Shown: positions 10,082 through 64,000 of the stretch, in pieces
Position numbering within the stretch: the first letter of the stretch is position 1
How the letters are laid out: every line of letters begins with the position of its first letter
Virus record (IMG/VR): IMGVR_UViG_2609459792_000007
Source of the DNA: a virus
Taxonomy: Duplodnaviria; Heunggongvirae; Uroviricota; Caudoviricetes
Direction: 5' to 3' (one strand)
Length of the DNA: 64,000 nt
The notes under the pieces: model-generated
What the model was told of the DNA's origin: nothing
Databases searched by the model: none
The model's input: the letters and a program-made list of their open reading frames with translations, nothing else
Position numbers and translations under genes: made by a program

Positions 10082-10156
10082 GATGGTGTAGCTCAGCGGT
10101 AGAGCAGTTGGCTGTTAACCAACTGGTCGGTGGTTCGAATCCACCCACCATCGCCA
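10082..10156 (+). tRNA. tRNA-Asn (anticodon GTT)
   Basis: Hand-folded cloverleaf: acceptor gatggtg/caccatc, D-stem gctc/gagc, anticodon stem gttgg/ccaac with loop ctGTTaa, T-arm ggtgg-ttcgaat-ccacc, CCA end. Confidence 0.85.
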
Positions 10157-10161
10157 ATTTA

Positions 10162-10248
10162 GGGGAGTTAGTCCGTAGAGGTAGCGGGGTAGACTGTAAA
10201 TCTACTGTCATGGAGACTCGGGTGGTTCGACTCCATCACTCCCCACCA
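10162..10248 (+). tRNA. tRNA-Tyr (anticodon GTA), long variable arm
   Basis: Acceptor ggggagt/actcccc, anticodon stem gtaga/tctac with loop ctGTAaa, T-arm ggtgg-ttcgact-ccatc, CCA; D-arm not cleanly canonical. Confidence 0.6.
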
Positions 10249-10252
10249 AATT

Positions 10253-26043: not shown

Positions 26044-26066
26044 GGCGTCCAGTTGGACGCCGTTTT
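26044..26066 (+). terminator. Terminator after SPFH gene
   Basis: ggcgtcc-agtt-ggacgcc hairpin plus T-run. Confidence 0.6.
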
Positions 26067-26120
26067 ATTCTCGTTATTATCACATACAAGAAAACAATTT
26101 GTTAAAAGGTAAAGTTAATT

Positions 26121-53327: not shown

Positions 53328-55013
53328 ATGAATACAGCCCTTTCCATCATCGACGATGCCAACTCAAACACTGCTATCGACTATCGGCAGGAAATGAACG
53401 TCATCCACGAAATTGTGGCCGAGTGCGAGAAAGAGATCGCCTTCATGTATCAGGTACACGACTTCGTTTATGGCGACGAACGCCACAACATGATTAATCG
53501 CCTGCTGAGACTAAACCATCGACCAGATGAAGATCGCTCGCGTTTAAATCGAGGTTGGTTGGATAAAGTCGATCTGGAATGGGTGAAACAGAATATTTGG
53601 GCCGAGTACTGGAGGAAGGTCACGGACATGACTAACGTTTTGCTGATCATGCCAGCTTCCCGTCGAGATGAGTGGCGCGAGCAGTTTATAGAGGGCAAAC
53701 AGGAAGTCATCAAAACTGACAGAACCGGCTACCAGATGAAGGTTAAAGAGTTCGTTGGTGTACCGGAGTTCAAAGCAGAAACGGTCATACCCACGATGCT
53801 TAATTTGCTGAATGACAGGCACAAATATCTCTCTGAGCGCGTGTATGGCTTGTTTAAGGCGCTGAGTCCTGCGCACAAGACAAATAAGACAAACGGTTTC
53901 AGCGAACGTCTGATAATCGCTGACTGCATTTCTGATTTCTGGCGGGACAGCGTTAGTGTGAACTATCGCAAAGAGGACTATATCGACGATCTGCGTGTCT
54001 TGCTTCATTTCTTCGCGCACAAAGAATTTATTACCATCAACCGCACTGCTGAGGTGCTATCAGCTGCGTATCGGGCAAACGACTGCCAGACCGGTGACTG
54101 GATGAACGTCGATGGAAATCTAATGCGCGTGAAGATGTTCAAGAACGGCAACGTTCACTTTGAAATACATCCTGACGTGGCCTGGAAGTTGAATGAGGTG
54201 CTGGCTTACAGTATGCCTGCTGCAATCCCCGCGCCATGTCGCACCGCGCCAAAAACACGGGCACCAAAGCAGTTCGGTTTAATCCAGAAGACGATCTCCG
54301 TGCCGGTTCGCACTGCGCTTCGTGACGGGCGATTGAGCAAAGACAAAGGCGTATGGTACTTCTCTGATTCAGCTCTCCAGAAGTCGCAGGTGGAAGAGCT
54401 TGAGCGCACACTGAGCTTCATTGGCGGCGTGCAGGAGAAAAAGCACTGGCAGTTCCCGTATGACATCGACCATACGCTAAATACGATTGTGGCTACCGGT
54501 TTAATACCGGATACAAAATCACACCAGTTCTACCCTACCCCACGCTTGATTGCTGAGTACGTTGCCAGAGCCACTGAATTGAAGCCTGGTGAGAAGCTGC
54601 TGGAGCCTCAAGCCGGACGTGGGGATCTTCTGGCCTATATTAACGCCGATCTGGAAGATGTTACCTGCATAGAAATCGCATCTCTCTTCGCTGATATCCT
54701 GCGTGGAAAAGGGTATACGAACACGATTTGCTGCGACTTCATAAAGTGGTCTGAGGACAACGCAGGTTATCAGTTCGACAAAATCGTTATGAACCCGCCG
54801 TACTCGCTTGGTCGTCATAAAGAGCACACGCTGGCTGCGCTGGGGCATCTGAAAGTCGGCGGGCGTCTTGTAGCAGTATTGCCGGGCACTGCGCCAATAC
54901 TGGACTGGATGACGATGGATAATTACGTTTATGCCAGAGGGAAGTCGTTTACCAACGAGTTTGAAGACACAGGGATCACAGTCAGCGTATACGTTTTCAA
55001 ACGCGTTAAATGA
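53328..55013 (+). CDS. DNA methyltransferase, NPPY-type, with large N-terminal domain of unknown function
   Basis: C-terminal AdoMet motif LEPQAGRGDL followed by IVMNPPYS; ~400-aa N-terminal region unassigned. Confidence 0.6.
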   Translation: MNTALSIIDDANSNTAIDYRQEMNVIHEIVAECEKEIAFMYQVHDFVYGDERHNMINRLLRLNHRPDEDRSRLNRGWLDKVDLEWVKQNIWAEYWRKVTDMTNVLLIMPASRRDEWREQFIEGKQEVIKTDRTGYQMKVKEFVGVPEFKAETVIPTMLNLLNDRHKYLSERVYGLFKALSPAHKTNKTNGFSERLIIADCISDFWRDSVSVNYRKEDYIDDLRVLLHFFAHKEFITINRTAEVLSAAYRANDCQTGDWMNVDGNLMRVKMFKNGNVHFEIHPDVAWKLNEVLAYSMPAAIPAPCRTAPKTRAPKQFGLIQKTISVPVRTALRDGRLSKDKGVWYFSDSALQKSQVEELERTLSFIGGVQEKKHWQFPYDIDHTLNTIVATGLIPDTKSHQFYPTPRLIAEYVARATELKPGEKLLEPQAGRGDLLAYINADLEDVTCIEIASLFADILRGKGYTNTICCDFIKWSEDNAGYQFDKIVMNPPYSLGRHKEHTLAALGHLKVGGRLVAVLPGTAPILDWMTMDNYVYARGKSFTNEFEDTGITVSVYVFKRVK

Positions 55014-55074
55014 TAGGTAAATACTTACTTAATTTGTGTAAGAATGTAATAACTAAACGATAAGAGAAAAACAC

Positions 55075-55779
55075 ATGAACAACCTCCAGTTAGAGCATTT
55101 TAACGTCACAGGCCATTCTGATTTTCCTTTCAAGTTTACATTGAAAGGTTATGCAGAGGATGCGGTAGGCCAGATCATTATTGATAAAGGCATCGTTAAG
55201 TTTGAGGGGAATTTTGATGAATCCGCGAAAACATTCATAGACTTCGTTGCCAAACGTTGGAGCGAGCAATGGAAAGACCTGGAAAAGCGCGCTAGTGAGT
55301 TTGATCGGTTCATGGATGCAATGGATACAGCAAAAGAGGCTCTTGCTGCTGGTACTCCGTTAGATCTGGAGTCACTTTTCAACGGCGAAGTGGCCTCTGC
55401 GATGTTCGCCACCATGTTCGCGGGTGAGTTCGTCCGCAGCGGTGCCAAAAACTACCTTGAGCTGGATTACAACGTCCCTGCAATTGGCGATTTCGTCGTT
55501 ACCATCCAACGCAAAGAAGGTAAGACGCCAGGTGAACGCGTCGCAGAGCTTGAGGCCGTTGTGGATCAGCGTAACGGAGAGTGTGACCGTTTGATCAACG
55601 AGCTTCATGCACTTCGGGAAGAAAGAATATGCGCGGGTAGTAATACACGTAATGCAGCGGATATCTACTTCCAGTTAGTTGAGGAATGCCAGATTCCACC
55701 AGGTGGCTCTCTTGTCGATTACGTAAGACATTTAATGGCGGAAGTTAGCTCCAGCCATAAAGATGGTGAGGTGCGCTGA
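55075..55779 (+). CDS. Hypothetical protein
   Basis: 234 aa; conserved cacATG start context. Confidence 0.45.
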   Translation: MNNLQLEHFNVTGHSDFPFKFTLKGYAEDAVGQIIIDKGIVKFEGNFDESAKTFIDFVAKRWSEQWKDLEKRASEFDRFMDAMDTAKEALAAGTPLDLESLFNGEVASAMFATMFAGEFVRSGAKNYLELDYNVPAIGDFVVTIQRKEGKTPGERVAELEAVVDQRNGECDRLINELHALREERICAGSNTRNAADIYFQLVEECQIPPGGSLVDYVRHLMAEVSSSHKDGEVR

Positions 55780-56159
55780 TGTTTGGCATTGACGCACAGC
55801 GTATAGCCGCTTTTGCAAAAAGCCCTCTTGATAATCCCTTGTCTCGTAGTGAGCAAATGGAGCTGGCAAGGCTTTTTCTTCATATTCAAAAACAGTCAGA
55901 CGTTTTCAATAACATGCCTGATCAACCTATTCTGGATGGTCACATCCAGATGGTCATTAACAGTCATGAGAAAGGCTGGGCTGCAATCGTCCCCAGCACA
56001 ATTACATACAAGTTGGCGAAAGAGGTTCAAGAGTTTCGAAAAGCCAGTGTCGAATCGGAGTCTACCAAAGCCGCAATAAACACTCTTATTCGCATGGGGT
56101 TCACATGGACCGGTGGAGCCTACTGGCAAGCACCTCACCCCATTTTATCCGGCAATTAG
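55779..56159 (+). CDS. Hypothetical protein
   Basis: 126-aa ORF overlapping previous stop. Confidence 0.4.
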   Translation: MFGIDAQRIAAFAKSPLDNPLSRSEQMELARLFLHIQKQSDVFNNMPDQPILDGHIQMVINSHEKGWAAIVPSTITYKLAKEVQEFRKASVESESTKAAINTLIRMGFTWTGGAYWQAPHPILSGN

Positions 56160-56278
56160 ACGCTACAAATCCTTCGGCATGAATAAATAAAGGCCATAAG
56201 TTGTGGCCTTAAATAAATTGTTTTCTACCTTTTCTTATTTGTGAAAATAACCACAACTAGAAAACAACGGAGTTAAGA

Positions 56279-56920
56279 ATGTCTAGTATTTCCGAAGCTC
56301 ATATGTTCGCCGCTGGCGCTCATGGTGGCGTTGGTCAGAAAAGAAAATATACCGGCGAAGACTACATCAACCACCCGGTTGCTGTCCGAGAGATTGTTGC
56401 ATTGCATGACGGAACCGTGGAGATGCAAATCGCGGCGCTTCTGCATGATGTGGTCGAAGACACCCATGTAACCATAGAGATGGTTCGTGATCACTTCGGT
56501 GAGCGCGTAGCTGAAATGGTTCAGGCTCTGACCAACATTGCAAGGCCAGAAGACGGCAATCGAATACAGCGTTTCATCATCAATGTCCGGGAGCTGGAGC
56601 AAAATCTCGACATGCAGACGCGCATGATCAAGCTGGCTGACCTGCTCGACAATACCTCTTCTATCGTGAGTCGCGATCCTGAGTTTTCAGCTATCTACCT
56701 TGCAGAGAAAGAGCTGATGCTGGACGTACTTTTTAACGGGAAGGAGATTGGTGCCAACGCTGATGTTGTCGAGTACATGGAGAGGATAGGTATAGAACAC
56801 CCGTTGTTATTAAGCGCAATGGCGAAAGTCACTGAAGGTATTGCGCTTCTGAAACCGGTACACATCAAACGTTATGAAAAACACAAATCGCTGATCTGGA
56901 GCGCGTGGGAGGCTGCATGA
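56279..56920 (+). CDS. HD-domain hydrolase, SpoT/Rel hydrolase-like (small alarmone hydrolase candidate)
   Basis: YINHPVAVREIV...AALLHDVVEDT matches the HD motif of RelA/SpoT hydrolase domains; 213 aa, no synthetase domain. Confidence 0.65.
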   Translation: MSSISEAHMFAAGAHGGVGQKRKYTGEDYINHPVAVREIVALHDGTVEMQIAALLHDVVEDTHVTIEMVRDHFGERVAEMVQALTNIARPEDGNRIQRFIINVRELEQNLDMQTRMIKLADLLDNTSSIVSRDPEFSAIYLAEKELMLDVLFNGKEIGANADVVEYMERIGIEHPLLLSAMAKVTEGIALLKPVHIKRYEKHKSLIWSAWEAA

Positions 56921-57459
56921 AGATCGAAAAAATAGATGTTCTTTCCTTTGTGCTGACGGATCTGGAACGCCTCGATCCGGTTCGAGTGATGATTGAAAAC
57001 TACGAACCTGGTAAGGGAAGAATCACCATCACCTGCTACGGAAAAGCGTGGACTGCGGCTTGGTTTGCTATGGGCGGTGATGATGTGCAGACGTTCATTA
57101 AGCGGGTCAGCAACGAGTATCTAATCGGCTATTTCGACCCTCAACTGCGAAGCACGGTCGACGATGACAACGATGCAAATCTGCTTTTCGTGAAGTCAGA
57201 AATCATAAAGTTACGAAGAGAGAGAGAAATAGACGCTGTACTGGCTCGCGAAATGTGGGACGAGGCGGAAAACGCCGATGACGTAAAAGAAAGCTGCTGC
57301 TGTTTCGGCGTCGGTAACAAACTACTGAATCTCTTTGGTGATGATCCGTGGTATGCCGACTGGCCAACGGTACCAAACCCGAAATACCAGTATCTGGAAC
57401 GCATTGTGAACTCGGTACGTGAAGGGCTGAAAGAGTTAGACAAGTTAGAGGCATCGTAA
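56917..57459 (+). CDS. Hypothetical protein
   Basis: ORF with ATG 56917 overlapping HD gene stop (ATGA). Confidence 0.4.
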   Translation: MKIEKIDVLSFVLTDLERLDPVRVMIENYEPGKGRITITCYGKAWTAAWFAMGGDDVQTFIKRVSNEYLIGYFDPQLRSTVDDDNDANLLFVKSEIIKLRREREIDAVLAREMWDEAENADDVKESCCCFGVGNKLLNLFGDDPWYADWPTVPNPKYQYLERIVNSVREGLKELDKLEAS

Positions 57460-57914
57460 TGAGAGAGAAAATCAAGAACCCGGTCGTCGTATTGTATAAG
57501 CGGGAAACCAGCGATTCTTATGCGGTATCTATCACTGATGGAAGCCAGAACATGCACGATGGTCTGCTAATGGCCTCCGTATCTCCTGATGATTCGGACT
57601 ACCCTTTCGCCACTTTCGCTATGGTTGGTTACTACATGGCTGCCGAAATTGAGAAGTTGCGGGCGCAGAGAGACGCATTAGCGGCGGAGAATGCAGCCCT
57701 GAAAGAATCTGAGCGAGCATTCGATGCGATGTGTGCCGAGGAACACGGAGATAATTGGGTTAGCGAATTAACGGAGACTCCAGCCACCGATGCTTTTCTG
57801 GCTGAAGTACGTGCGCAGGGCGTGGAGATGTTTGCTGAGTGTGCATACACACTTGAACATCATGATCACGCAGTAGCCTTCGCCGCTGATCTTCGCAAAG
57901 GAAATAAACAGTGA
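57459..57914 (+). CDS. Hypothetical protein
   Basis: 151-aa ORF, translationally coupled. Confidence 0.4.
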   Translation: MREKIKNPVVVLYKRETSDSYAVSITDGSQNMHDGLLMASVSPDDSDYPFATFAMVGYYMAAEIEKLRAQRDALAAENAALKESERAFDAMCAEEHGDNWVSELTETPATDAFLAEVRAQGVEMFAECAYTLEHHDHAVAFAADLRKGNKQ

Positions 57915-58477
57915 GTGAGATTTACTACCTGACGTTACGTGAGCGTTATTCACCAAAACCAGCGCCTAAATGCTCTGTTTGTGGCGAGGAAATGTCAATA
58001 CAGCGCATATCTGGAGCACATGTTGTTTATGCCTGTTCCGGTGAGGGTGATGACGGATATTTTAAGATAGGGCGTACTTTTGCAGACGAACATTATGAAA
58101 AATCACGCGTAACAGTAGTTGATGATAGTGATCCCGATGTGATTGCACTGCTGGACGAAATGGATAAAAGACAGCAACACATCCGACGTCTTGAGCAGGA
58201 GAACGTAGAGATGGCCCTAACGCTTGAGAAACTGCGTGTTGAGCTGGAGACCGTTAAACAGCGGGAAAAGGATCTGTTTATGGAAAATGTTCGACTTAAG
58301 TCAGGTATAGCAGGTCTGATACACCTCGGTATTCGATATGCGGATGTCGAAGTCATGAAAATAGCTGGAGATGCCCAGCTTTCTACTCCCTGTACTGACA
58401 GCATCATAAACAGTATTGCATCAGGCGTTTTCACCAAAGAGGGTCAGCATGATGAGAACAGTAGAAGTTCGCGCTGA
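57911..58477 (+). CDS. Hypothetical zinc-ribbon plus coiled-coil protein
   Basis: CSVCGEE...YACSGEGDDGYFK then coiled-coil segment. Confidence 0.4.
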   Translation: MSEIYYLTLRERYSPKPAPKCSVCGEEMSIQRISGAHVVYACSGEGDDGYFKIGRTFADEHYEKSRVTVVDDSDPDVIALLDEMDKRQQHIRRLEQENVEMALTLEKLRVELETVKQREKDLFMENVRLKSGIAGLIHLGIRYADVEVMKIAGDAQLSTPCTDSIINSIASGVFTKEGQHDENSRSSR

Positions 58478-58637
58478 AGATGTAATCCCAGGTGATGTGG
58501 TCATAACATCTAAAGGCAAACGATGTGCGGTTAAATCTTTCTGGATGGAAGGTGACAAAGTGACTCTGTTCGGTACGGATGGTTCCGAAACGGATTATGA
58601 CTACGACGAATTGCTTGTTGTTGAGAGAGCTATCTAA
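58449..58637 (+). CDS. Hypothetical small protein
   Basis: Start moved to ATG 58449 (track start 58416 is TTG). Confidence 0.3.
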   Translation: MMRTVEVRAEDVIPGDVVITSKGKRCAVKSFWMEGDKVTLFGTDGSETDYDYDELLVVERAI

Positions 58638-59305
58638 TGACCACCGTTAACAATAAGAAATGCTACCCAAGCGAGAAATATCTTAATGAGCTGATCACCA
58701 ACATTGAGTTCGCTGCAAGGGCACCAGTTGAAGTCGTGAGAGCGATTGCAGCAGAGCTACAGAAGTACCGTAAGGCCTATGCCAATACAGCCGCAACTAA
58801 GGATGGTTGGATAAGCTGTAGTGAGCAGATGCCTGTAATTGGCGAGCTAAATTGGAGAACTAGTTTTCCTTTGCTGATTACGTGTGAGATCGGCGTTATA
58901 CCTGCTTATTACGGCTTTGTAAGCATTAATGGTGAAAGACATTATGGCTTTATGGAGAGTTTTAAATACGGAGATGAGCACGGCAACCACCCTCAAACTA
59001 ATGAATATGGCTTCATTAGTAATGTCACACACTGGATGCAGCTACCAGAACGCCGCAGGAGTCGAAGAGTGAATAAAGCAGAGTTATTTCAGAAAATATC
59101 GGCTCTCGCGACTGAATGCCACGCTATAGCATCTGAGCTTGATGTTGGCGGTGAACGAACCGAGATGTTCGAAATATACAGTGTGCTGCGCAATCTCTGT
59201 CGGCGTGGCTACGCTACTCAGGTGGGGCGAATGACTAACCCACTACTCTCATCCTGTGATGAGGATGACTCGGATGAGGATGACTCGGATGAGGATGACG
59301 AATGA
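58637..59305 (+). CDS. Hypothetical protein with acidic DEDDSDEDDSDEDDE tail
   Basis: 222 aa; C-terminal Asp/Glu/Ser repeat. Confidence 0.4.
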   Translation: MTTVNNKKCYPSEKYLNELITNIEFAARAPVEVVRAIAAELQKYRKAYANTAATKDGWISCSEQMPVIGELNWRTSFPLLITCEIGVIPAYYGFVSINGERHYGFMESFKYGDEHGNHPQTNEYGFISNVTHWMQLPERRRSRRVNKAELFQKISALATECHAIASELDVGGERTEMFEIYSVLRNLCRRGYATQVGRMTNPLLSSCDEDDSDEDDSDEDDE

Positions 59306-61035: not shown

Positions 61036-61171
61036 GCATCCCTTCTCCATTAAGGCCACTAGTTGTGGCCTTAAACAATTTGTTTTCTACCTTTTCTTGT
61101 TCGAGAAAATAACGTTCCTTTGTCTGGTGCTATGTACCGAACAGTTGCACTGAGTGAGCTTCTTTCATGTA

Positions 61172-61207: not shown

Positions 61208-61597
61208 ATGGGCTTCCCTTCTCCTGCGGCGGATTATGCTGAGAGCCGTATTTCTCTTGATCAGCAGATAATTAGACATCCTTCAGCGACCTACTTCATG
61301 AGGGCAGCTGATAGTCATCATCGTGAGGGAATATTACAGGGTGCATTGCTGGTGGTCGATTCCTCACTTACCCCGGTTGATGGTTCTCTGCTTGTATGCG
61401 CTCTGGATGGGGAATATCGCGTAAAAAGATACCGGAAGTATCCACGTCAGCATCTGGAGGATTTAAGAACCGGTAAGAAGGAAGCATTGCCAAAGGATGA
61501 CGATGGGTGCACGGGCAGCAATGCCGTGTTTGGTGTGATCACTCACATTATCAACGACGCAAGAAGTGGCGAGTTTGATGATTGTCCCGTGATGTAG
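61208..61597 (+). CDS. UmuD'-like S24 peptidase-fold protein, pre-truncated, no umuC partner
   Basis: Starts MGFPSPAADYAE (UmuD residues just after the autocleavage site); SATYF..A.DS....GI..GALLVVD; LexA box upstream. Confidence 0.8.
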   Translation: MGFPSPAADYAESRISLDQQIIRHPSATYFMRAADSHHREGILQGALLVVDSSLTPVDGSLLVCALDGEYRVKRYRKYPRQHLEDLRTGKKEALPKDDDGCTGSNAVFGVITHIINDARSGEFDDCPVM

Positions 61598-62892: not shown

Positions 62893-64000
62893 ATGACCCA
62901 AGTCGCGAAGAAAATTCTGGTGACGTGCGCGCTGCCGTACGCTAACGGCTCAATCCACCTCGGCCATATGCTGGAGCACATCCAGGCTGATGTCTGGGTT
63001 CGTTACCAGCGAATGCGCGGCCACGAGGTTAATTTCATCTGTGCCGACGATGCCCACGGTACGCCGATCATGCTGAAAGCACAGCAGCTTGGTATCACAC
63101 CGGAGAAGATGATTGGCGAAATGAGTCAGGAACACCAGACTGATTTCGCAGGCTTTAACATCAGCTATGACAACTATCACTCGACGCACAGCGAAGAGAA
63201 CCGTCAGTTGTCTGAGCTTATCTATACTCGCCTGAAAGAGAACGGTTTTATTAAAAACCGCACTATCTCTCAGTTGTACGACCCGGAAAAAGGCATGTTC
63301 CTGCCGGATCGTTTTGTAAAAGGCACCTGCCCGAAATGTAAAGCGCCAGATCAATACGGCGATAACTGTGAAGTCTGCGGCGCAACATATAGCCCGACTG
63401 AATTGATCGAGCCGAAATCGGTGGTTTCTGGCGCTACCCCGGTAATGCGTGATTCCGAACACTTCTTCTTTGATCTGCCTTCTTTCAGCGAAATGTTGCA
63501 GGCATGGACCCGCAGCGGCGCGTTGCAGGAGCAGGTGGCGAACAAAATGCAGGAATGGTTTGAATCCGGCCTGCAACAGTGGGATATCTCCCGAGATGCG
63601 CCTTACTTCGGTTTTGAAATTCCGAACGCGCCGGGCAAATATTTCTACGTCTGGCTGGACGCGCCGATTGGCTACATGGGTTCCTTCAAGAATCTGTGCG
63701 ACAAGCGCGGCGATACCACCAGCTTCGATGAATACTGGAAGAAAGACTCCACCGCCGAGCTGTACCACTTCATCGGTAAAGATATTGTTTACTTCCACAG
63801 CCTGTTCTGGCCTGCCATGCTGGAAGGCAGCAACTTCCGCAAGCCGACCAACCTGTTTGTTCACGGCTATGTGACGGTGAACGGCGCGAAGATGTCCAAG
63901 TCTCGCGGCACCTTTATTAAAGCCAGCACCTGGCTGAATCATTTTGACGCCGACAGCCTGCGTTACTACTACACTGCGAAACTCTCTTCGCGCATTGATG
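62893..64000 (+). CDS. metG: Methionyl-tRNA synthetase (5' part, runs off window end)
   Basis: [26 protein letters not shown] (HIGH motif), zinc knuckle [18 protein letters not shown]; open to position 64000. Confidence 0.9.

Follow-up and report, generated by a model that had tools for sequence, protein, structure and literature searches.

A predicted PaSpo-type small alarmone hydrolase as a candidate counter-defence gene of an SSU5-like phage-plasmid

The window analyzed here, a stretch of 64,000 nucleotides from IMG/VR record IMGVR_UViG_2609459792_000007, carries at positions 56279-56920 of its plus strand a gene for a small alarmone hydrolase (SAH) of 213 amino acids, which starts with ATG and contains a single HD domain of the RelA/SpoT homolog (RSH) type. 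The evidence set out below favors the view that this gene, an accessory gene of an SSU5-like phage-plasmid, encodes an active SAH of the PaSpo type that cancels the arrest which toxic small alarmone synthetases (toxSAS) bring about, a reading to which we assign a probability of about 0.78. The protein family, the ortholog in phage SSU5, the phenotype of that ortholog, and the hypothesis of counter-defence have already been published.

The hydrolase and its ortholog in phage SSU5

The protein begins MSSISEAHMFAAGAHGGVGQKRKYTGEDYINHPVAVREIV...AALLHDVVEDTH and holds the segments YINHPVAVREI and AALLHDVVEDT. A sequence-only reading of this region had recognized the HPVAV...AALLHDVVEDT motif in a protein of 213 residues, and the open reading frame (ORF) and the Pfam matches agree with it (HD_4, E = 1.4e-18, residues 8-135; HD, 6.4e-06; no further domain); in addition, phrog_990 matches the hydrolase at 8e-55. 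The models of full-length enzymes, TIGR00691 (spoT_relA) and PRK11092 (SpoT), are aligned only by their N-terminal parts (~125-150 positions; for TIGR00691, model positions 1-123 of 687), and the gene product is therefore a hydrolase domain to which no synthetase, TGS, or ACT region is attached, as had also been proposed. It should be noted that the end coordinate given in that reading, 57459, is the end of a second gene and not that of the hydrolase. The PDB entries closest in sequence are the HD domains of long RSH enzymes (SpoT 7qpr and Rel 6s2t, 1vj7, and 5xnx; E values from 1e-13 to 1e-11, residues 10-139), but these enzymes have ~700 residues, whereas the window protein has 213 and lacks the SYNTH, TGS, helical, ZFD/CC, and ACT/RRM domains. 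A long bifunctional RSH of the SpoT/Rel type is defined by SYNTH and TGS/ACT domains, and the ORF stops at residue 213; the single RSH-type HD domain, the catalytic constellation, and the RSH hydrolase fold place the protein among the SAHs.

The catalytic His and Asp residues, on whose retention the sequence-only reading depended, are intact, as is the remainder of the active site (R22/K23, H32, H56-D57, E60-D61, D121, and N125), and all of these residues are invariant in an alignment of 40 homologs that are 43-88% identical. Residues H32, H56-D57, E60-D61, D121, and N125 align with their counterparts in SpoT (7qps and 7qpr), Rel (5xnx), human MESH1 (3nr1), and Lmo0812, and R22/K23 with theirs in MESH1, SpoT, and Rel, so that the constellation of a metal-binding His, the HD and ED pairs, a distal Asp, and an Arg/Lys and an Asn for nucleotide contact is complete; also invariant among the 40 homologs are A14, H15, Q20, R22, K23, Y24, and T25. 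A model generated by AlphaFold2 from the same alignment (pLDDT 97.1, pTM 0.92) consists of one compact, all-helical domain comprising residues 1-213, and a Foldseek search of the PDB with it gave 41 matches with E <= 1e-3, all of them to MESH1, bacterial SAHs, or the hydrolase domains of Rel and SpoT and all with a probability of 1.00. The single-domain RSH hydrolase fold is shared with MESH1 (HDDC3; 3nr1, 5vxa, and 9chy) and with the bacterial SAHs of Pseudomonas aeruginosa (6yvc), Corynebacterium glutamicum (RelH, 7qod), and Leptospira (7qoe), with target-normalized TM-scores of 0.70-0.77 and conservation of the H..HD..ED..D..N constellation, but the identity to these proteins is only 20-28% and the window protein is ~30 residues longer. 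Its insert (approximately residues 153-175) and its C-terminal helix are peculiar to the SSU5-like clade, environmental phage homologs of ~175 residues lacking both.

The ratio of nonsynonymous to synonymous substitution rates (dN/dS) is 0.18 in comparison with the SSU5 gene and 0.05 in comparison with that of pJN2-26, which indicates that the gene is functional and under purifying selection. Given these values and an exact protein cluster of 705 public member sequences, the ORF is far beyond what chance would produce.

The closest characterized relative is SSU5_099 of Salmonella phage SSU5, a protein of equal length to which the window protein is identical without gaps at 187 of 213 residues (88%). 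Most of the 26 substitutions fall within the C-terminal helices (residues 150-200), and the catalytic positions are all spared. The genes are also similarly placed, each following a gene for a DUF4942 methyltransferase and two small genes and each overlapping the same downstream gene by the same 4 bp, and both are carried by SSU5-like phage-plasmids, although the host is Salmonella in one case and Escherichia in the other. The genome of SSU5 has a single site that matches the hydrolase, and SSU5_099 is its only RSH-type HD gene; because there is only one homolog, SSU5_099 (AFL47026.1) would be the protein that the literature calls the "Salmonella phage SSU5 SAH (PaSpo)", PaSpo(SSU5) of Jimmy et al. 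(2020). As that protein has been placed in the PaSpo subfamily (PMC7229694), its full-length identity of 88% to the window protein strongly, if indirectly, suggests that the latter is a PaSpo member as well.

PaSpo(SSU5) cancels the toxicity of CapRel, PhRel2, FaRel2, PhRel, and FaRel, which are all five of the validated toxSAS in that study (Jimmy et al., 2020; PMC7229694, Table 1). The same authors describe it as a stand-alone phage SAH and propose that phages encode SAHs to bypass toxSAS defences (PMC7229694). In later work, PaSpo(SSU5) is co-expressed so that CapRel(SJ46) can be produced (PMC9712102), and its co-expression likewise detoxifies FaRel2 and PhRel2. The view that this region encodes a stand-alone hydrolase of the Rel/SpoT type, on a mobile element and with counter-defence as its candidate role, is thus in line with the published one, an ortholog with 88% identity being able to neutralize five toxSAS.

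The element to which the gene belongs was assigned from its relatives. A segment of 3.5 kb around the hydrolase gene matched 446 PLSDB plasmids, 438 of which are non-mobilizable; the top matches are Escherichia plasmids of ~109-114 kb with 97-99% identity, e.g. p009_B (NZ_CP048306.1), and the hydrolase region also matches phages SSU5, PhiR41_1, Cyrano, and CMS-2020a. The annotation of p009_B includes a full siphovirus structural module together with RepB and ParB functions, DnaE, RecA, NrdAB, ligase, and tRNAs. On the basis of these matches and this annotation, the window is assigned to an SSU5-like phage-plasmid of E. coli. Thymidylate synthase and dihydrofolate reductase (DHFR) are likewise among the genes for nucleotide and DNA metabolism of the element, with NrdAB, DnaE, and ligase.

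Proposed function and competing explanations

In the mechanism that we propose, an accessory gene in an early operon of the SSU5-like phage-plasmid would yield a Mn2+-dependent SAH of the PaSpo subfamily, and this enzyme would strip the 3'-pyrophosphate installed by enzymes with the RSH synthetase fold, from (p)ppGpp and (p)ppApp and probably also from tRNA-CCA-PP. Removal of the pyrophosphate would lift the arrest of growth or translation by toxSAS such as CapRel, FaRel2, PhRel, and FaRel, which serve bacteria and resident prophages as abortive-infection defences. Kurata et al. found that FaRel2, PhRel, PhRel2, and CapRel pyrophosphorylate tRNA at its 3'-CCA end and that two SAHs, MESH1 and ATfaRel, undo the modification in vitro, restoring aminoacylation. 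Since four of the five toxins neutralized by PaSpo(SSU5) act on the 3'-CCA of tRNA instead of making alarmones, the relevant substrates probably include, besides (p)ppGpp and (p)ppApp, modified tRNA. The allele in the window would be biochemically active by virtue of its homology to the SSU5 enzyme, de-pyrophosphorylation of tRNA may be expected of a PaSpo-type enzyme, and the benefit would fall in infection, as the published hypothesis has it, or in the establishment of the plasmid.

Several points weigh against this reading. The allele differs from its SSU5 ortholog by the substitutions noted above, and its activity is deduced from orthology. In the parts of the published account that bear on the matter, direct de-pyrophosphorylation of tRNA is demonstrated with MESH1 and ATfaRel (PbcSpo) and not with purified PaSpo. 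A search of the available literature gave no case of a phage SAH that raises the plating efficiency against toxSAS in a real infection, no direct demonstration of SAH counter-defence in infection, and no work on ppGpp in the SSU5 phage-plasmid. The promoter assigned to the gene, which is described below, is a tentative one that follows only from a consensus argument. Finally, the gene is dispensable, as it is lacking from PhiR41_1 and, by megablast, from about three quarters of the Escherichia SSU5-like plasmids.

A second explanation, which is possible but clearly the less favored, is that the enzyme manipulates the stringent response of the host, degrading the (p)ppGpp made by RelA and SpoT so that the synthesis of ribosomes and nucleotides and the replication of the element continue. 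It is compatible with the neutralization of toxSAS, since both would depend on one enzyme activity and would differ only in the benefit under selection. As judged from relatives in the PDB, (p)ppGpp is the canonical substrate of the enzyme family, the many genes of the element for nucleotide and DNA metabolism fit a boost to replication, and the discussion section of PMC7229694 links phage infection to the accumulation of alarmones. However, the hydrolase gene lies in a hypervariable region of the ea type, outside the conserved replication module, a location more typical of arms-race genes, and the neutralization of toxSAS is the sole phenotype for which the ortholog has been tested.

A third, rather doubtful, possibility is that the hydrolase belongs to a tRNA-centered protection toolkit together with the element's own tRNAs, methionyl-tRNA synthetase (MetRS), and a dead paralog; its substrate would then be pyrophosphorylated tRNA and not alarmones, and the paralog or the product of the downstream gene, DS180, would be a decoy that binds tRNA or toxin, or a specificity factor. 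The window contains a plasmid-borne metG gene for MetRS (plus strand, from ~62893 to 64000, where it runs off the window end). In p009_B, a second HD paralog of 231 residues, 63% identical to the window hydrolase, directly follows metG (NZ_CP048306.1, 77610-78305, equivalent to locus L096, 27610-28305; minus strand). The HD dyad of this paralog is HG (LLHGVIEDT), and the invariant residues H15, Q20, F136, and K144 and the nearly invariant D133 are also changed, so that this SAH paralog has probably lost its catalytic activity. As the window end corresponds to position 79384 of p009_B, at 98% identity, the paralog is to be expected 1-2 kb past position 64000; SSU5 has no second copy of the hydrolase. 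Four tRNA genes, for Asn (GUU), Tyr (GUA), Thr (UGU), and Ser (UGA), are located at 10082-10639 of the plus strand. The reported targets of FaRel2 include tRNA-Thr, and any link between the tRNA genes of the window and the hydrolase is speculative.

It is also unlikely that the gene acts by lysogenic conversion, either protecting the carrier cell from injected (p)ppApp synthetases such as the Tas1-type effectors of type VI secretion systems or acting on a substrate other than an alarmone, e.g. NADPH. NADPH has been reported as a substrate of MESH1. Among the close structural relatives are a (p)ppApp hydrolase (7smg) and complexes of MESH1 with NADPH and with PAPS, and a passage in PMC9765508 credits SAHs with conferring self-resistance to toxic alarmone synthetases, but expression in the plasmid state and a link to resistance against type VI secretion are suppositions, and the substrate preference is not readable from sequence.

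The downstream gene and the two-gene cassette

The last four bases of the hydrolase ORF, ATGA, hold the start codon of the next gene (gcATGAag), so the overlap reported in the sequence-only reading is borne out. This gene, DS180, begins at 56917 and ends at 57459 on the plus strand, and its product of 180 residues belongs to a family of unknown function (phiTE_072, PF26211, phrog_3451); Pfam, NCBIfam, structure, and PADLOC searches gave no structural match and no family clue to its function. The two genes form a presence/absence cassette (56251-57458, plus strand) of ~1208 bp, in place of which the SSU5-like phage PhiR41_1, having neither the hydrolase nor DS180, carries 47 bp. In a blastn comparison of positions 55000-59000 with the PhiR41_1 locus (L002), both flanks of the cassette are homologous, 55000-56250 corresponding to L002 2001-3251 with 97.7% identity and 57459-57831 to L002 3299-3671 with 87.7% identity.

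The same reading had suggested that the gene following the hydrolase might be its partner, and this was examined by a comparison of gene neighborhoods that covered E. coli genomes, three further SSU5-like clades, six phage records, and 80 viral contigs. The pair is kept in SSU5, pJN2-26, and two further loci (L015 and L020). Among the 80 viral contigs with a homolog of the hydrolase, DS180 occurs within 4 kb in only two, those whose hydrolases come nearest to the window protein (99 and 79% identity). In the SSU5-like elements of the Klebsiella type, the hydrolase gene is upstream of the methyltransferase gene and has other neighbors, and in a clade with 40% identity an unrelated gene of 156 codons lies downstream. 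Conversely, DS180 is present without the hydrolase in phages EC.W1-9 (88% amino acid identity), Kp4856-1, Cronobacter CR8, and Pseudomonas 8P, and at 60 chromosomal sites in E. coli with 97-98% nucleotide identity, and it stands alone in many prophages. The suggestion is thus for the most part not sustained, as the genes are linked only in the closest SSU5-like relatives and DS180 is widespread without the hydrolase; a role for DS180 as a general conserved partner is rejected.

These observations also bear on the idea that the hydrolase and DS180 constitute a dedicated two-protein system, DS180 being a regulator, a specificity factor, or a second anti-defence component, which we regard as quite improbable. 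The 4-bp overlap, the joint gain or loss of both genes as a cassette of ~1.2 kb in relation to PhiR41_1, the retention of the pair in its closest relatives, and the purifying selection that dN/dS indicates for DS180 as well as for the hydrolase are what such a system would lead one to expect. Against it stand the rarity of DS180 near other viral hydrolase genes, the different neighbors in the Klebsiella-type and 40%-identity clades, and the frequent occurrence of DS180 by itself, to which may be added the uninformative family and structure searches. Moreover, DS180 of EC.W1-9 has a like 4-bp overlap with an unrelated upstream gene, and PaSpo(SSU5) is functional when it is expressed by itself in E. 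coli. We conclude that the ATGA overlap reflects the tight packing of genes in a phage early operon, not a functional pair.

The type IV antitoxin role, in which the hydrolase would counter a toxSAS encoded by the same element in the manner of FaRel and ATfaRel, has a precedent in the faRel operon, where SAHs act as such antitoxins (PMC7229694), but is highly improbable here: the flanking genes encode no RelA_SpoT synthetase domain, a tblastn search of the window did not detect another RSH-like gene, neither a RelA/SpoT-domain protein nor a GTP pyrophosphokinase is listed in the 131 features that PGAP annotates in p009_B (99% identical), and the stand-alone description of the SSU5 enzyme by Jimmy et al. 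points the same way. For the annotated genes, a toxSAS-SAH module of the FaRel-ATfaRel type is effectively refuted, as there is no adjacent toxic synthetase. The SSU5 ortholog of the window protein does share with SAHs of the ATfaRel type the reported phenotype of universal toxSAS neutralization, but ATfaRel is of another SAH subfamily, and its gene adjoins the toxin gene, whereas no synthetase is encoded next to the hydrolase of the window.

Genomic setting, distribution, and implications

The intergenic region upstream of the hydrolase gene is 119 bp long and contains a repeated element of ~60 nt (56206-56267, plus strand), directly 5' of the ribosome-binding site (GGAG, 56269-56272), that resembles a promoter or operator. 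The bases TGTTT...CC...T.T of its core are invariant, and at 56240-56248 it has an extended -10-like sequence, TGTGAAAAT. Copies are found 10-20 nt 5' of start codons at two to three sites in every 8.6-kb SSU5-like locus examined, and the consensus derived from 12 aligned copies is ...AAACAAnTTGTTTTCTACCTTTTCTTATTTGTGATAATAAC...AAGAAAACAATTTGTTT, in which AAACAAnTTGTTT palindromes flank an extended -10-like TGTGATAAT. A degenerate pattern of the core has two exact occurrences in the window, at 56219-56250 and 61081-61112 on the plus strand, where 0.02 would be expected, and a weaker match at 26065-26096 on the minus strand; the second copy is ~95 nt upstream of an S24-peptidase-like gene (61208-61597). 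The element was detected through its repetition and not by a promoter scan, and a generic sigma-70 scan does not call it on the plus strand, the counts of promoters and terminators in the region being no higher than in a shuffled background. Its recurrence suggests a role as promoter or operator. PhiR41_1 has the same element up to the -10 sequence, so that the cassette is directly 3' of a shared promoter-like site and would be promoter-proximal in its operon.

A GC-rich hairpin, AAGGCCAtaagttgTGGCCTT, lies at 56190-56210 between an upstream gene of 126 codons and the promoter-like element, with a terminator-like call on the minus strand, and a similar hairpin at approximately 61056-61076 precedes the second copy of the element. 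The hairpin is possibly a terminator between transcription units, with the proviso that the terminator-scan counts do not exceed those of the shuffled background. A structured RNA in the intergenic region was considered and dismissed, the only Rfam match being DapZ with 22 bits, in comparison with a gathering score of 56, and an E value of 0.66.

The hydrolase gene is situated in a variable accessory region of the ea type that includes Ead/Ea22, DUF551, and DUF4942-methyltransferase genes. The protein of 561 residues encoded at 53328-55013 (plus strand) combines an N-terminal DUF4942 domain with a C-terminal methyltransferase domain and matches phrog_6263 (DNA methyltransferase) and the PADLOC models mad2 and Type II MTase; in all likelihood it is an orphan DNA methylase of the anti-restriction type. 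Apart from this generic methyltransferase match, PADLOC found no defence system in the hydrolase and its neighbors. The methyltransferase gene is followed by a gene for a protein of 234 residues (55075-55779, plus strand), the ~90 N-terminal residues of which match phrog_3451. In this family of 287 positions, 13-101 match the N terminus of the 234-residue protein and 105-282 match the whole of DS180; as phrog_3451 spans both modules, fusion proteins of the two exist in other phages, a further sign of mosaic recombination in the region. On the 3' side of the cassette (57459-59305, plus strand), the genes are of types found in the lambdoid "ea-region" and patchily common to Stx, P1-like, and lambdoid phages, and encode an eae-like protein of 151 residues (phrog_492), an Ead/Ea22-like protein (PF13935; 57911-58477, plus strand), and a DUF551 protein with an acidic DDSDEDDSDEDDE tail (58637-59305, plus strand). 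In a distant SSU5-like clade, a gene for a Tad2-like protein (anti-Thoeris, PF11195) is found ~2 kb upstream of a 40%-identical hydrolase gene (1563-1877 of locus L011, from a Logan SRR31304528 contig of 110.6 kb), which is consistent with the accessory region being a hotspot of anti-defence genes.

By megablast, the hydrolase gene is present in 144 PLSDB plasmids, from Escherichia (49), Enterobacter (41), Salmonella (39), and Citrobacter (14); Klebsiella elements carry homologs that are 52-58% identical and are missed by this method. The gene for the DUF4942-methyltransferase is present in 557 PLSDB plasmids, including 205 from Escherichia, 185 from Klebsiella, and 47 from Salmonella. The full two-gene cassette occurs in 36 of 5,426 complete E. 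coli genomes, and among the matches listed all full-length cassettes are on plasmid-sized records of ~104-156 kb. Relatives of the hydrolase are encoded by 248 phage records of GenBank and by at least 535 contigs of IMG/VR, and the gene is thus a common and variable accessory one.

Decayed or chimeric forms of the gene are also encountered (proteins P0010, P0011, and P0012). In one of them, the N terminus of an AAA-ATPase is fused to the hydrolase at ...DEDTH, which leaves it without H32 and H56; in another, the N terminus of the upstream 234-residue protein is joined to approximately residues 76-213 of the hydrolase; and an N-terminal truncation of 139 residues is found on 139 contigs. In some plasmids (H146-H150 in PLSDB and H183-H185 in E. 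coli), no more of the hydrolase ORF is left than its initial 43 nt, which correspond to the first 67-71 nt of a cassette query that starts at position 56251. To judge from these sequences, recombination repeatedly breaks the hydrolase gene.

The window adds one more allele of an enzyme that has been characterized through its SSU5 ortholog and is annotated in hundreds of plasmids. SAHs of phages and plasmids are plausible broad-spectrum countermeasures against abortive infection by toxSAS such as CapRel and FaRel2; in the laboratory, they are handy tools for the expression of toxSAS toxins. Since the cassette is present or absent among SSU5-like elements that are otherwise collinear, nature provides near-isogenic pairs, PhiR41_1 being an example of an element without it. 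Although the practical value of the finding is modest, such pairs are suited to asking whether a phage SAH overcomes toxSAS defence in infection.

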